This document shows, piece by piece, positions 40,938 to 46,887 of a DNA stretch of 64,000 bases. Below the pieces are notes generated by a model, which worked only from the letters and a program-made list of their open reading frames with translations, made no database searches and was not told the origin of the DNA. A program made the position numbers and the translations under genes. This stretch comes from Dehalococcoidia bacterium (GTDB lineage: Bacteria > Chloroflexota > Dehalococcoidia > Lucifugimonadales > Australimonadaceae). The stretch is from the NCBI GenBank assembly GCA_965220225.1, contig OZ244813.1, forward strand, positions 2,826,570 through 2,890,569. Reading direction: 5' to 3'. How positions within the stretch are numbered: the stretch's first letter is position 1; each line of letters starts with the position of its first letter.

Positions 40938-40948
40938 GCCACGTACCT

Positions 40949-41244
40949 GTCATTTCGAGCGAAGCCGAGAAATCTCTCGGGGCACCCCGCTCGTGGTGAG
41001 CCTGTCGAACCATCCTGCGCAGGCAGGGACCTCGCATCTCACCTCTCCTGAGGGAGGGTTAGGGTGAGGGCCCTCCGGGGTGGTGTGGTGAAGGGCTTGT
41101 CATTTCGAGCGAAGCCGAGAAATCTCTCGGGGCTCTGCCCGCTCATGGTGAGCCTGTCGAACCACCGTCATTCCCGCACCGGCGGGAATCCAGAGTGACC
41201 GGGCAGGTCACGCGGTGGGGTGGTGCCTGGTCCCCTCTCCCTTG
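40949..41244. repeat. Mosaic cluster of REP-like palindromes (families A, B, C, D)
   Basis: GTCATTTCGAGCGAAGCCGAGAAATCT x2, CGCTC(A/G)TGGTGAGCCTGTCGAACCA x2, one dRS3-like copy and family A. Confidence 0.8.
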
Positions 41245-41261
41245 GGGAATTACTAACAATG

Positions 41262-41438
41262 CTAGCCAACCTCTGCTTCCCGCGCTATCAGCATTGCATC
41301 GGCCATCATGTACGCTACCGCAGCATAGCCTACGCGAGTCGCCTCTTCTGTCACAACCTTAGTGTGCGGGTTACTTGCCATCAATCCCGCTAACGCTTGT
41401 CCCGCGAACCAGTCCCGTAGGCTTATGTTGTCCGGCAT
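41262..41438 (-). CDS. Small phage-type hypothetical protein (58 aa, MPDNISLRDWFAGQALAGL...AYMMADAMLIARE)
   Basis: Translated by hand; GGAG RBS; TAATG coupling; resembles the phage 'LRDYFAA..AM..AY..ADAML.AR' family; stop codon lies inside the left TIR. Confidence 0.7.
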   Translation of the reverse strand: MPDNISLRDWFAGQALAGLMASNPHTKVVTEEATRVGYAAVAYMMADAMLIAREAEVG

Positions 41439-41581
41439 TAGTTGCTCCCTTTGTCTTTCTTTTCCTTCTTCTGATACTTGTATCCGCCAGGAGGTGGTGC
41501 GCGGAACTGCATCACGACTTCCGCGATTTCTTCCGCTGTGTAGCCCTTCATATCCTTTGATGGCTTATTGTCCTTCGCCAC
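41438..41581 (-). CDS. Small basic hypothetical protein (47 aa, MAKDNKPSKDMKGYTAEEIAEVVMQF...)
   Basis: GGAGG RBS and GTG start just downstream of the transposase. Confidence 0.55.
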   Translation of the reverse strand: MAKDNKPSKDMKGYTAEEIAEVVMQFRAPPPGGYKYQKKEKKDKGSN

Positions 41582-41604
41582 TGTCCACCTCCCGCTTATC
41601 GAGT

Positions 41605-42558
41605 CTATTCTACTACATTTTGACTTACCAAGTCTTGCCAGCGCAGACGCTTCCCGACAATACCATCGGCCATAACGTCCAACTGTTGAGCCGTGTCCAA
41701 CGGGCGTTGATTGTGACGCCCTGCGAACTCGTTCACATATCTTTGCAAGTGCTTACCGCTCATCTGGTGGTAGGTTCCGTGATACCCACGCTTCAGCATC
41801 GCCCAATGGCTTTCAATGCCGTTGGTGTGCGCCGCTTCATTCACGAACTGCGAAACACCATGCTTCACAATCTTGTGCTCTTGTGGAATGTTCCGGTAGC
41901 CGGAATGTTCATCCGTGTAGACGATTGCATTGTCCGCTACCTGCTCCTCCACAAAGCCTTGCAAGGTTTCCGTCTTGGTGTCAGGTACGACGCGCAAGAC
42001 AACTTTGTTCATTTCACGCCCTTTCGCGCCCATAACCACAACCTTGCCGACTATGCCCGTACCCTTTCGGAGTTTCTTGTTAGCATGCTTGTTCCTTTCC
42101 AAGCCACCGATAAAGGTTTCGTCTACCTCGACCTCACCAGAGAGCTTGTCCATCCCCGCGTTCCACGCTTCCCTGATGCGGTGAGCCATGTGCCAAGCCG
42201 CCTTTTGGGATATCCCCAAGTCACGGTGCAACTTCATGCTGGACACACCCTTAAGGTTCGTAGCGTACAGGTAGAACGCCACCGCCCACTTACTAAGCGG
42301 GATGTTGGAATCGGCAAGAACCGAACCAGTCCGCACAGAGAAATGCTTGCGGCAGTCCCTGCACCTAAATGGCATAGGCTTGCGATTCGCAACCTCACGA
42401 GCATTACCAACCACGCCACAATGCGGGCAAGCAATCCCGTTAGGCCAACGACGCGCAATGAACCACTCTTCCGCTTTGCGCTCGTCAGCAAAGTAGGCAA
42501 TCGCTTCGGTAAGCGAGATACCCTTCCGTTCAGACCTGCCTGGTGCCTTCTTAGTCAT
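41605..42558 (-). CDS. IS1595-family DDE transposase
   Basis: Zn ribbon CPHCG...CRDC, HTH, VEVDETFIGG, YTDEHSGY and HTNGIESHWAMLKR...KHLQRYVNEF..RHN. Confidence 0.95.
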   Translation of the reverse strand: MTKKAPGRSERKGISLTEAIAYFADERKAEEWFIARRWPNGIACPHCGVVGNAREVANRKPMPFRCRDCRKHFSVRTGSVLADSNIPLSKWAVAFYLYATNLKGVSSMKLHRDLGISQKAAWHMAHRIREAWNAGMDKLSGEVEVDETFIGGLERNKHANKKLRKGTGIVGKVVVMGAKGREMNKVVLRVVPDTKTETLQGFVEEQVADNAIVYTDEHSGYRNIPQEHKIVKHGVSQFVNEAAHTNGIESHWAMLKRGYHGTYHQMSGKHLQRYVNEFAGRHNQRPLDTAQQLDVMADGIVGKRLRWQDLVSQNVVE

Positions 42559-42598
42559 ACTTCACATCCTCTTCAAACTAGAATATTGAACTGTGCGA

Positions 42599-42627
42599 AT
42601 CATAACATAAACACTTCCATTTGTCAA
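42599..42627 (-). promoter_or_regulatory. Near-consensus sigma70 promoter for the transposase
   Basis: Minus strand TTGACA-N17-TATGAT with TG extension. Confidence 0.7.
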
Positions 42628-42726
42628 GCGACAACGCGCTCGGATTTACGCCAATTACGTGCATTGCTGGAGGCGGGATTAGTTCAATATCCCTTGTTGA
42701 AAGGCGTGTTCCCGCCTCCAGCAAAC

Positions 42727-42755
42727 TTGACTCCGATATTCGATTGTACTACCAT
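42727..42755 (+). promoter_or_regulatory. Promoter of cargo cassette 1
   Basis: TTGACT-N17-TACCAT; spacer contains TATTCGATTGT. Confidence 0.6.
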
Positions 42756-42760
42756 CATTC

Positions 42761-42853
42761 TGCTACAAGTCCGCTTACCCCTGTGAGTCACCAGGCGGGA
42801 GCGTTGGGCTACCCATGCCCTCCTTGTCAGGCTCGCAGTGCGGACTTGTAGCA
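42761..42853 (+). ncRNA. Structured leader RNA (putative)
   Basis: Perfect 14-bp stem TGCTACAAGTCCGC/GCGGACTTGTAGCA with inner CTGTGAGTC/GGCTCGCAG. Confidence 0.5.
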
Positions 42854-42887
42854 AAGCACCAAGCTCTTGCCGCAAGGAGGGTTCCAC

Positions 42888-43499
42888 ATGCGTTATCTGT
42901 TACTGGTCGTCGTTGTTGCGGGCCTAGTAGCGTGCGCTTCACCGACGCCTACCCCTACGCCAACGGCAACTCCTAGACCTACACCTACTCCAACACCTAC
43001 TGCGACGCCTATTCCAACCGCAACACCTACGCCTACCCCTGAACCAACACCCACACCAACGGCGACGCCTACACCTACCCTGATTCCGACACCTACGTCC
43101 ACTCCATTACCTACGGCAACACCTACACCTATCCACTGGTACAGTCCGCAAGAAATCACGGAGGTCTACCAGACTAATCGTGCTCGTGCTCATATCCTGT
43201 TTGAAACCGGAACCGTCCATATTCAAGGCGAAGTATCCGAATTCCACACAAATCAACTTGGCCTAATCTACCTCGTCAAGCGGCGTGCGCCAGCAAGTGA
43301 TTTCTCATTCCTTACCGAAACAGACGCACAACGCGCCGCTAAGGATTGGAAGGTCATTAGAGCGAAGTTGTCCATCGAACAAGTAGCCGCAATGAACATT
43401 GGCGACCCTATCCGCTTGCGCTGTGATAGGCTTGAGCCTGATGAATACGTAGGGACAGGTGCGGAACTGATTTGCGCTAACCCTGTCCTGACACCATGA
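42888..43499 (+). CDS. Lipoprotein with PT-repeat linker and probable OB-fold (tRNA_anti-like) domain
   Basis: AAGGAGG RBS, lipobox LVAC, (PT)n linker, 'EITEVYQTN...VHIQGEV' and 'IGDPIRLRC' pattern. Confidence 0.7.
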
Positions 43500-43510
43500 G
43501 GCTTGCGCGT

Positions 43511-43633
43511 GGAGAGGTGCCGGAGTGGTTGAACGGGGCCGACTCCAAATCGGTTAGGGGCTTGGAAGTCTGACATTCTGTGTTTGTATTTCCTTTCAGT
43601 CCCTCGCGGGTTCGAATCCCGTCCTCTCCTCCA
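43511..43633 (+). tRNA. Atypical tRNA: anticodon CCA (Trp) on a Ser-like class II body, 51-nt variable arm, encoded CCA end
   Basis: Acceptor GGAGAGG/CCTCTCC; D arm CCGGAGTGGTTGAACGG; anticodon stem GCCGA/TCGGT with loop CTCCAAA; T arm GCGGG-TTCGAAT-CCCGT; U73-CCA. Confidence 0.8.
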
Positions 43634-43665
43634 GCCCCTCCTCACGCGAGCGCGTAGTCTTTGAT

Positions 43666-43695
43666 TTGACTCTATTCGATTGTTAATGCTAACGT
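43666..43695 (+). promoter_or_regulatory. Promoter of cargo cassette 2
   Basis: TTGACT-N18-TAACGT with TG extension; spacer again contains TATTCGATTGT. Confidence 0.5.
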
Positions 43696-43755
43696 CCTTA
43701 GTGACAAGTCCGAACCGTGTTGCGGGGCGGGCTTGTACTCATTTAAGGAGGTTCT

Positions 43756-43881
43756 ATGTTCGTAATGTTCTTTCGGTTCCCTGTGCCCGTTGTCCGTCGA
43801 TTCCGCGTACCGGAACCACCTCGCTCATTGGGGCTAGTTGCCGCCTACGAACGAGCAGGGTATGATTCGGACGCGGGCTAG
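43756..43881 (+). CDS. Putative 41-aa peptide (MFVMFFRFPVPVVRRFRVPEPPRSLGLVAAYERAGYDSDAG)
   Basis: Strong AAGGAGG RBS, partly paired within the upstream hairpin. Confidence 0.5.
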   Translation: MFVMFFRFPVPVVRRFRVPEPPRSLGLVAAYERAGYDSDAG

Positions 43882-43916
43882 TCATGGCTAGCCCGTAGAC
43901 GGCGGGGTAGTTCTCC

Positions 43917-44008
43917 GTGGCAGTGTTGCCAGTGTGGTTAACTGGACGAGGATTCAAACCCTTTGAACGACTCAGTGCGTGGCGGTTCGATTCCGCCTCT
44001 GCCCGCCA
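43917..44008 (+). tRNA. Degenerate tRNA-Sec-like RNA, anticodon UCA
   Basis: Long D stem CCAGT/ACTGG; TTCAAA loop; T arm GGCGG-TTCGATT-CCGCC; G73-CCA; acceptor and anticodon stems imperfect. Confidence 0.55.
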
Positions 44009-44057
44009 GCGTGGACTACCCCGCCGTCACCTTTGGCTAGCATTGTTAGTAATCCCC

Positions 44058-44170
44058 CTCCCTTGAGGGGAGAGGGCTAGGGAGAGGGTGAACCGGCGGT
44101 GTAGGGTGCCTGGTCTAGGGGCATCCCTCGTGGGTGCCCTTGCCCCGCTCATGGTGAGCCTGTCGAACCA
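44058..44170. repeat. REP-like cluster, right part (families A, E, C)
   Basis: CTCCCTTGAGGGGAGAGGGCTAGGGAGAGGG, TAGGGGCATCCCTCGTGGGTGCCCT and CGCTCATGGTGAGCCTGTCGAACCA. Confidence 0.75.
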
Positions 44171-44254
44171 CCCTCGTCGTTCCAGCGCAGGTAGGGACCT
44201 CGCAGCCCTGCCGCGTGGTGTTAGGCCTCAACCAGGCGCGCCCGGCGCCCGTTG

Positions 44255-45124
44255 TCACCTGCGGAGACGCGCAAGCAAGCCGCCGCGCTTAGGCTGGGCC
44301 GGTTCCCCTTGCAGCATCTGCGGGGGAAGCGGTTCCGCAGAAACTAGGTGCTCTGCCACGACGGTGACTGCGCTCAAGCAGCCGGACAGTACCGATATCA
44401 CCGGTGGCCTTCGTTGAAATTCCCTTTCGCTGCCAGTTCCGTAGCCGGGGCTCGCCGCTACTATCTCTTCGTCCCGAAAGCAGACATCGACCATGACGCG
44501 TAGCTCCACACTGTCCTCATGCTCAGTTCCCTGCACGTCGTAGTACAGAGCTGTGCCTCCGATGAGGCGCGACGGCAACCGAGGGGGCTCGACACCATCC
44601 TTGAAACGAGCATCCAGCGACGTATGCGTATTCACCACGTTCAGGTACCGGTGCTTGTCTATGTTGCATATCAGGTGGAGCATCCATAGGTGACGCCCGA
44701 TGTCGCCCCTGAACGGCTGGAACGCCTCGATCAGATCGCAGCGGTCGTGCGTGATTCCTTCGAGTTTCCTCGGAGCAACTTTCAGATACTCCCCTTCTTC
44801 GTCAAAGATTGGGAATTCATTCTGCTTAGTGGGTTCCTTGCCGTTATCTTTGACAAGCGCATAGACGAGGTGGTCCAGGGCAGAACGAAGGTTGTAGGCG
44901 ACCTCCCCCACCCTGATGGGGAAGTCCATTGGAACATACCCCGGATCGCTCTCCCGTACGTGGAAGCGCCGAATCACGGGATTCCTGGCGCGTGACTCCA
45001 TCTCCAGGACCCTGCGCTGTATCTGATACTCGCAGTGTGCGGTGATGTCAGACCGCAGACTTTCCAAACACTCGCGCGCCCGGCGAATCTTCGCGTCTAC
45101 TCCTCGGCTGTCGACCATTGCCAC
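44255..45124 (-). CDS. Hypothetical protein (NLRSALDH ... NIDKHR pattern)
   Basis: 289 aa directly downstream of the methyltransferase. Confidence 0.75.
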   Translation of the reverse strand: MAMVDSRGVDAKIRRARECLESLRSDITAHCEYQIQRRVLEMESRARNPVIRRFHVRESDPGYVPMDFPIRVGEVAYNLRSALDHLVYALVKDNGKEPTKQNEFPIFDEEGEYLKVAPRKLEGITHDRCDLIEAFQPFRGDIGRHLWMLHLICNIDKHRYLNVVNTHTSLDARFKDGVEPPRLPSRLIGGTALYYDVQGTEHEDSVELRVMVDVCFRDEEIVAASPGYGTGSEREFQRRPPVISVLSGCLSAVTVVAEHLVSAEPLPPQMLQGEPAQPKRGGLLARLRR

Positions 45125-45129
45125 GCCCC

Positions 45130-46887
<1,758 letters not shown>

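Follow-up and report, generated by a model that had tools for sequence, protein, structure and literature searches.

As classified in ISfinder, the IS1595 family of insertion sequences includes subgroups with passenger genes, and an 8-bp target duplication is one criterion for membership. Leaders that sequester the Shine-Dalgarno (SD) sequence include translational riboswitch platforms and RNA thermometers such as ROSE and fourU, while the Escherichia coli ompA 5′ untranslated region (UTR) exemplifies a 5′-terminal stabilizing stem-loop, and integron attC sites are imperfect hairpins of 60-140 nt located next to exchangeable genes. Mukai et al. (2017; PMC5389517) found irregular tRNAs and allo-tRNAs near transposons and toxin-antitoxin genes. 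We analyzed a 64,000-nt window of a Dehalococcoidia bacterium genome (assembly GCA_965220225.1, contig OZ244813.1; positions are those of the window), in which an IS1595-family element (41245..44057) carries a passenger region composed of two units. We lean, if only slightly, towards the reading that these are two sigma-70-type units built from one promoter-plus-5′-leader module, and that the leader is able to mask its own SD.

The element is 2,813 bp long and present in one copy in its host genome, a single contig of 2.94 Mb with 66% G+C. An inverted-repeat search placed its terminal inverted repeats at approximately 41245-41269 and 44033-44057, and an 8-bp direct repeat, CTCCCTTG, flanks it at 41237-41244 and 44058-44065. 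Together with a 317-aa DDE transposase (41605..42558, minus strand; DDE_Tnp_IS1595, PF12762, 2.5e-40) that has an N-terminal zinc ribbon (Zn_ribbon_IS1595, PF12760, 9.3e-09), these features place it in the IS1595 family.

Both passenger units are on the plus strand and have the same promoter architecture, namely TTGACTC, an 11-nt box in the spacer (TATTCGATTGT), a -10 element of the form TAnnnT, a hairpin that starts 5-8 nt after the -10, and a hairpin arm reading ACAAGTCCG. The first promoter (P1; 42727..42755) was recovered by a promoter scan, with 9 of 12 consensus positions, and comprises TTGACT (42727-42732), a 17-nt spacer with the box at 42737-42747, and TACCAT (42750-42755). The second (P2; 43666..43695) was identified from the sequence and from comparison with a sister element, and comprises TTGACT (43666-43671), an 18-nt spacer with the box at 43673-43683, and TAACGT (43690-43695). 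The box occurs only twice on the two strands of the 2.94 Mb genome, against approximately 0.14 copies expected, each time directly after TTGACTC.

The sister element was the only one among 60 relatives searched that shared the cargo DNA, and came from a genome of the same genus (G018). It was 77% identical over 2 kb, covering the transposase, the first leader and the lipoprotein gene that follows it, and 97% identical at the ends. Against that overall identity, its P1 differed by only 2 changes in 34 nt, and its P2 retained the -35, the -10 and the 18-nt spacing, with a box that reads TATTCAGTTGT and is displaced by 4 nt; the box was therefore present in both sister promoters. The promoter-plus-box pattern was found in four of 101 related Dehalococcoidia genomes, specifically the host itself, G018, and two small genomes (approximately 1.3-1.4 Mb). 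The matches in the latter two were set aside as chance, being in A+T-rich stretches where tblastn revealed no transposase across the 1.7-3 kb retrieved and where the 200 nt downstream lacked a comparable hairpin. The original prediction had described two cassettes sharing one grammar and had expected that grammar to recur in other elements. Its promoter half stood, in that a module beyond chance is common to both units and conserved in the sister, while the two hairpins turned out not to be one motif; as to recurrence, the box was in no element of the 101 genomes other than those of the window and G018. In the sister IS1595 element, comparison of the cargo, which it had proposed, showed that P1, P2, the box and both hairpins were kept and the tRNAs were swapped.

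The leader RNA of the first unit (42761..42890, plus strand) consists of a 93-nt hairpin (42761-42853) followed by the SD and a start codon at 42888. Its arms, ACAAGTCCG (42765-42773) and CGGACTTGT (42841-42849), are part of a perfect 14-bp pairing of 42761-42774 with 42840-42853. An internal anti-SD, CCCTCCTTG, is located at 42818-42826, and its complement, the SD region CAAGGAGGG, at 42873-42881, with AAGGAGG upstream of the ATG at 42888. The predicted fold has a free energy of -52.5 kcal/mol (z -5.9), and none of 200 shuffled sequences was as stable. The 9-nt arm is common by itself, with 29 genome copies versus approximately 19 expected. In the sister the arms were kept, and the inner helix differed in sequence and was again complementary. 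All strings quoted in the original prediction were present at the positions it gave. In Rfam 15, no family overlapped 42761-42890 or 43696-43760 at E values up to 5, and, among the titles and abstracts listed (supplements excluded) on Dehalococcoidia, anti-Shine-Dalgarno elements and lipoproteins, none described the leader.

We built a covariance model (R1) from three leaders, including that of the first unit, which scores 132 bits by construction. With E-values that are to be taken as rough, R1 had 43 matches in 25 of the 101 genomes, in 12 of 21 genomes of the host genus, in all members of two sister genera (7 of 7 and 2 of 2), and in 3 of the 45 genomes that belong to other families within the order, two of these only at E ~0.009. 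An earlier, strict text pattern had missed real members that R1 later caught. Twenty of the 43 places for which DNA was available, plus a second IS1595 element of the host genome, formed an aligned set of 21 leaders; a cut at E 1e-5 dropped four rows, three being weak reverse-strand or overlapping matches and the fourth a leader from G012. Each of the 21, and the weak G012 leader as well, folds alone into one long hairpin. Across the aligned set, 97.4% of cells in the basal and apical helices were paired, versus 32-46% in slid controls, 13 of 17 pairs changed on both sides, and none of 500 shuffles reached the covariation score; these figures come from an alignment fitted to the model, which favors pairing, and from related copies that are not independent. 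The basal helix varies in sequence among members and is always complementary. In 17 of the 21 leaders a TAnnnT hexamer ended 5-6 nt upstream of where the hairpin starts, compared with a rate of 2.4% for random positions in the same loci, and the hairpin is very likely at the 5′ end of the transcript because of this spacing. The leader of the first unit has the features of the family, that is, the basal helix, the apical anti-SD complementary to its SD, and a -10 box 5-6 nt upstream.

A further feature of the family was the relation between the tip of the hairpin and the ribosome-binding site. An element of the CCCCCTTG type was located near the tip in every one of the 21 leaders, and in 20 of them it gave the longest uninterrupted complementary match (8-13 nt) to the stretch directly preceding the start codon. 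The SD is often non-canonical across the family, mostly the unusual CAAGGGGG. R1 contains both anti-SD and SD, such that their joint presence is partly by construction and only matched variants count as evidence; there were at least four of these, namely CCCTCCTTG/CAAGGAGGG in the window, CCTCCCTTGG/CCAAGGGAGG in the second element of the host, GCCTCCTTG/CAAGGAGGC and CCCTCCTG/CAGGAGGG. In two leaders the complementarity extends over 12-13 nt.

These variants bear on an alternative that we consider a real, if minority, possibility, in which the hairpins are plain 5′ stabilizers that do not switch, a recent duplication left the shared box and arms behind without any regulatory role, and the anti-SD is simply one strand of a G+C-rich stem. 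Such a strand would not by itself constrain the SD, which changes together with the anti-SD and is unusual in most members. That the box survived a 4-nt shift in the sister P2 while the surrounding spacer diverged likewise speaks against mere leftovers. The alternative does account for hairpins that start beside the -10 box, for the absence of the box from other members of the leader family, and for the energetics. At minimum energy, the anti-SD is base-paired within the hairpin to an imperfect partner that resembles an SD, and this closed hairpin was the minimum-energy state of all 21 leaders, as expected of a stabilizer, which also requires no trigger. The open ribosome-binding site would thus be the ground state, and masking would need the hairpin to be opened or its 5′ arm to be lost.

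Besides the limits of alignment and model given above, several points weigh against a two-unit module with a masking leader. Forcing the anti-SD onto the real SD costs 4.7-23.3 kcal/mol in each of the 21 leaders; with the SD:anti-SD state less stable than the hairpin, a switch needs a trigger, and none is known. The -10 of P2 is weak, agreeing with the consensus at 3 of 6 positions, and escaped the promoter scan. With filters off, the leader of the second unit scored -2 to 0.3 bits against R1, outside the family, and common descent of the two leader modules rests on approximately 27 shared nucleotides. The 41-aa open reading frame (ORF) of the second unit is barely conserved, with 8 of 15 residues identical (E 0.019) to a 42-aa ORF of the sister. 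No binder is known for the box, which has no fixed place in the spacer; our guess is that, being specific to this element lineage, it might be a shared binding site that co-regulates both units. Finally, RNA was recorded for none of the eight listed runs, so that transcript starts, processing and expression are predictions. We nevertheless retain the masking leader as our preferred reading.

The leader of the second unit has a shorter 5′ hairpin (43704..43736, plus strand), with arms ACAAGTCCG (43704-43712) and CGGGCTTGT (43728-43736). Folded as 35 nt, it has a free energy of -21.8 kcal/mol (z -5.3), not equaled by any of 200 shuffles. The sister keeps this helix as AAGCCCG/CGGGCTT, with one U-G pair replaced by C-G. 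In common with the first unit are the promoter and box, the 9-nt arm, and a similar stretch from SD to ATG, and ACAAGTCC is a common variant of the basal arm in the R1 family, such that the second leader looks like a reduced copy of the first module. An outer pairing of CCTTAGTG with CATTTAAGG, proposed to cover the ribosome-binding site, appeared in the fold; however, its 5′ strand is 0-8 nt after the -10 and mostly upstream of the likely RNA start, and the pairing was not kept in the sister. An intrinsic terminator or attenuator role for the short hairpin was considered and dropped, there being no terminator-like site, which takes a G+C-rich stem with a T run behind it, in 41200-44100. The claim of an undescribed leader-RNA motif accordingly held for the first cassette, the leader of which recurs beyond the element with covariation and has no Rfam match, and did not extend to the second as a member of one motif; a covariance model, a check suggested for that claim, found relatives of the first leader and did not recognize the second. 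Downstream, AAGGAGG (43745-43751) precedes the 41-aa ORF (43756..43881, plus strand), for which no homologue was found and of which the coding status is doubtful. A small hairpin, CGGGCTAG/CTAGCCCG (43874..43895, plus strand), overlaps its stop codon, and its arms are kept in the sister while the loop differs.

The gene following the first leader encodes a 203-aa lipoprotein (42888..43499, plus strand) with a lipobox signal peptide, a Pro/Thr linker, and a 120-aa C-terminal domain without assigned function. It had no match in the copy of Pfam used, and its own database row carries a precomputed Pfam entry, PF27998. Relatives numbered three among 5.8 billion proteins, one being the window protein itself, and 400 other genomes of the class yielded a single weak match. 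An order-wide profile search returned mostly the low-complexity linker and no strong match outside the host genome, and the cargo proteins retrieved nothing useful from PADLOC or NCBIfam. A third sister, available as protein only, has a lipoprotein that is 66% identical, with an over-extended N-terminus that reads through the leader and parallels the in-frame translation of the window, including the codons of the anti-SD and the 3′ arm. In the G018 sister, each cassette includes an additional hydrophobic ORF of 49 aa immediately ahead of the tRNA slot (L024 2005-2154 and 1527-1676, minus strand), and both are missing from the window element.

Across the family, the gene after the leader encoded a lipoprotein in 16 of 22 cases (the 21 aligned leaders plus that of G012). 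Pfam searches of 17 downstream proteins identified four trypsin-like peptidases, two RCC1-repeat proteins, one collagen-repeat protein and one DNA methylase, and left nine without a family. Nine of the 43 R1 matches had an IS1595-type transposase gene no more than 2 kb away, with three of these matches in the host, two in G018, and one each in G034, G800, G806 and G807. Conversely, no IS1595 transposase was present within 1.5 kb at 14 of 18 newly fetched leader loci, or within 4-5 kb at four loci that were enlarged. The leader family is frequent on IS1595 elements and not confined to them. Several near-identical leader-lipoprotein cassettes were present per genome in G727 (L113, L114) and G021 (L099, L112), with no IS1595 transposase within 4-5 kb, and may ride on another kind of mobile element.

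The second IS1595 element of the host, present as two identical copies (C1:1725181-1727957 and C1:2219568-2222344; L051 182-2958), is 2,777 bp long, has AAATGCAA duplicated at its ends, and encodes a transposase 58% identical to that of the window. Its cargo comprises a tRNA-like gene with an 8-bp acceptor and a 4-bp T stem (8/4; anticodon GAU; tRNA-Sec-like, 42.1 bits), a leader with a lipoprotein gene, and a 101-aa ORF. The lipoprotein has a Pro/Thr linker, and the only in-frame start of the cassette is ATC. At the equivalent place, its leader hairpin has the base TGCTAC/GTAGCA as in the first window leader, and the arms are otherwise different yet complementary. In the host genome, 37 ORFs passed a lipobox plus Pro/Thr filter, among them the lipoprotein ORF of the window and a small number of short, spurious ORFs, and inspection by eye revealed the SD signature of the leader upstream of none of the others.

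The first unit ends in an irregular tRNA (43511..43633, plus strand) with a CCA anticodon, U73 and an encoded CCA end, identified through Rfam and alignment with host tRNA-Ser. No tRNA was reported in the window by ARAGORN with default settings, and relaxed settings, which give mostly noise, returned this gene as CCA with a 46-nt insert. Positions 43511-43630 scored 50.4 bits against the Rfam tRNA model (RF00005; threshold 29), with a 47-nt insertion in the variable region. Its acceptor, D arm and T arm are those of the host tRNA-Ser(GGA), with U73 in place of G73, and its anticodon stem is preserved by compensated changes. The loop of the variable arm holds a 36-nt A+T-rich insert (43554-43598), in a genome of 66% G+C, that forms an extended stem of its own. 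Two further odd tRNA genes exist in the host (C1:2267902-2267996 and C1:2596211-2596287; L053, L052): one is a 95-nt second tRNA-Leu(CAA) without encoded CCA (Rfam 46.6 bits), and the other (51.1 bits) reads as AAC, has an anticodon stem that pairs poorly, and has a loop resembling that of an odd tRNA of the sister.

The second unit ends in a tRNA-like RNA (43918-44008) enclosed in a long helix of 43898-43921 with 44005-44028 (43898..44028, plus strand; from inverted repeat, fold and homology). Its 8-bp acceptor is interrupted by U-C and U-U mismatches and its T stem has 4 bp; the D stem and the variable arm are both long, and the anticodon is UCA. Positions 43919-44003 scored 34.9 bits against Rfam tRNA-Sec (RF01852), below the threshold of 47. 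The earlier claim of tRNA-like genes in both cassettes was thus borne out for the CCA gene, which passes the Rfam tRNA threshold, and the UCA gene is degenerate. The latter is homologous to tRNA-like genes of the second host element and of G021, with anticodons UCA, GAU and GAU, respectively, and a consensus fold with these two homologues gave 8 + 4 pairs together with six pairs in the variable arm and seven in the D stem, the 8/4 form. It scored 73.8 bits against the 8/4 covariance model (R2), of which it is one of three seeds. R2 had matches at 16 places in 12 of the 101 genomes and did not match the separate, true tRNA-Sec of the host. From its sequence, the UCA RNA fits the irregular and allo-tRNAs described by Mukai et al. 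(PMC5389517).

Six of the 16 R2 matches were within 3 kb of a leader, in the window element, the second host element, G021 and G747. This proximity, and the conserved internal loops of the leader, would be expected of a leader that responds to a ligand or to a co-resident RNA, such as the tRNA-like RNAs on the same elements, which could open the hairpin in T-box manner; we think this reading improbable. The other ten R2 matches are away from leaders, most leaders have no such gene nearby, and the G018 sister lacks an 8/4-model match. Moreover, no Rfam family, T-box included, was found at E up to 5, a comparison that did not extend to a search for specifier-like or NCCA-binding sequence.

In the sister, both tRNA slots hold different genes between conserved flanks. 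The first is a 93-nt tRNA with a tRNA-Leu-like D arm (by eye, against the tRNA-Leu of the window's host genome), a long variable arm, a GUC anticodon and A73, and the second has an abnormal anticodon loop. Also kept are the small hairpin ahead of the second slot and the long helix, which in the sister encloses a different tRNA. This exchange between conserved flanks, and the very different genes that leaders precede (trypsin-like peptidase, RCC1 repeats, collagen repeats, methylase), raise the idea that the hairpins are attC-like DNA sites at which cassettes were captured one by one. We give this almost no credence. The 3′ base of the hairpin was GTNGCAA-like in all 21 aligned rows and never the attC-type core GTTRRRY, integrases not having been searched for; the slots at which tRNAs were swapped lie apart from the hairpins; and the hairpin is placed relative to the -10 and the SD and co-varies with the SD, which argues for a function in RNA. 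The proposal of modular cargo, accreted cassette by cassette, is therefore supported as to the swapped tRNAs, with no sign of cassette-capture machinery.

In the mechanism we envisage for the masking leader, transcription would start at the hairpin, as the placement of the -10 suggests, and the base-paired 5′ end would protect or stabilize the mRNA. The anti-SD would initially be locked in the hairpin, leaving the ribosome-binding site open. Cleavage or degradation of the 5′ arm, or its displacement by a factor, would free the anti-SD to close that site, making the leader a latent off-switch. The second unit would be a stripped-down copy that retained only promoter and basal helix, and the irregular tRNA gene ending each unit would presumably be cut from the 3′ end of the transcript by tRNA-processing enzymes. 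A more speculative extension, which we regard as a long shot, is a portable translation-control kit on IS1595, combining an anti-SD leader for any exported protein with tRNA-like RNAs that either are hybrids, joining a body of one identity to an anticodon of another, or take the 8/4 fold, and that act as a trigger in trans or as deliberate mistranslators. If true, this would be a tRNA-sensing switch unrelated to T-boxes and spread by transposition.

More conservatively, the leader family of this Dehalococcoidia family is a new candidate cis-regulatory RNA family, absent from Rfam, as judged from sequence, that offers usable covariation and comes from an uncultured lineage. To our knowledge, almost nothing is known of gene regulation in this lineage. 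The family recurs as a portable expression module that unites promoter and leader with a signal peptide and a Pro/Thr linker, is attached to very different proteins and is found on no fewer than three kinds of IS1595 element, which suggests that transposons spread ready-made expression signals besides genes. The same elements carry tRNAs with disagreement between body and anticodon, so that the question of why mobile elements keep irregular tRNAs becomes testable at a defined locus.

Other features of the element and its surroundings were as follows. The transposase is preceded by a promoter-like site (42599..42627, minus strand) of TTGACA, 17 nt and TATGAT with TG before the -10, which matched 11 of 12 consensus positions in the promoter scan and is in a region kept in the sister. 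A perfect 15-bp inverted repeat (42664..42724), found in the inverted-repeat search, separates this promoter from the divergent P1; the corresponding pair in the sister differs in sequence and is likewise complementary, and the repeat may be an insulator or terminator hairpin. Downstream of the transposase, a 47-aa lysine-rich ORF (41438-41581, minus strand) without family match resembles, by eye, a 59-aa ORF at the equivalent place in the sister, and is a candidate small DNA- or RNA-binding protein.

Repeat units, which we read as REP-like, flank the element at 40948-41165 and 44054-44204 and include a 36-nt stretch repeated exactly 150 nt apart. The insertion site is within a palindromic CCCTCTCCC...GGGGAGAGGG unit, where contigs of the sequencing runs break or cross-join. 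In contigs from three sequencing runs the element assembled as one 2.9-kb contig, and contig joints at 80% likeness were located in the flanking repeats. Adjoining the element, positions 44255-46788 (minus strand) encode a DNA methylase of 552 aa that carries a fused Mrr-type nuclease domain, along with a 289-aa protein without family; elsewhere, leader-family member L111 precedes a DNA methylase.

An exact 19-mer of the terminal repeat was present in a single record of genome_contigs. A 17-mer had six single matches to viral contigs, all in A+T-rich, unrelated context, which were rejected as chance. A transposase scan of metagenomes returned eight loci at 37-51% identity, with no ARAGORN tRNA in any of the eight and no Rfam match in the five scanned. 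Wider IS1595 relatives at 47-60% identity occupied 38 places, where only host-type tRNAs in two loci and 5S rRNA were found (ARAGORN on 26 loci; Rfam gathering score on 20). One such relative (L068; G019 C1:1930467-1934399; transposase 49% identical) ends approximately 0.9 kb from tandem host tRNA-Ser(CGA) and tRNA-Ser(GGA) genes, a layout that illustrates a possible capture route, tRNA-Ser(GGA) being the type that the CCA tRNA resembles. Titles and abstracts on IS1595, passenger genes and tRNAs described no arrangement such as that of the window.

Set beside the allo-tRNAs described in PMC5389517, the tRNA-like genes share the 8-bp acceptor and 4-bp T stem, the long variable arm and long D stem, unexpected anticodons, stem-weakening mismatches, and the link to mobile elements. 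In contrast, the genes described here are inside IS1595 elements with target duplications, downstream of promoters and ORFs; their anticodons are UCA and GAU; and the tRNAs of the first slot are of the ordinary 7/5 kind, their body being Ser- or Leu-like and their anticodon CCA or GUC. As in SD-sequestering leaders, complementarity of a cis element to the SD would allow the ribosome-binding site to be masked, and alternative pairings exist among an SD-like partner, the anti-SD and the SD. Unlike in those leaders, the anti-SD is part of a 5′-terminal hairpin that is 5-23 kcal/mol more stable than the masked state, the motif has no known ligand pocket or trigger and no Rfam family, and it is on mobile elements before very different genes. 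Like the ompA-type stem-loops, the helix appears to occupy the very 5′ end of the transcript, while its length of 90-130 nt and an anti-SD co-varying with the SD set it apart. Integron attC sites likewise are imperfect hairpins beside exchangeable genes; here, however, the GTTRRRY core is missing and the hairpin is located between the promoter and the SD of the same gene. Finally, the element resembles IS1595 members with passengers in its DDE_Tnp_IS1595 and zinc-ribbon domains, terminal inverted repeats and 8-bp duplication, and differs from them in its cargo, a pair of promoter-leader-ORF-tRNA units.

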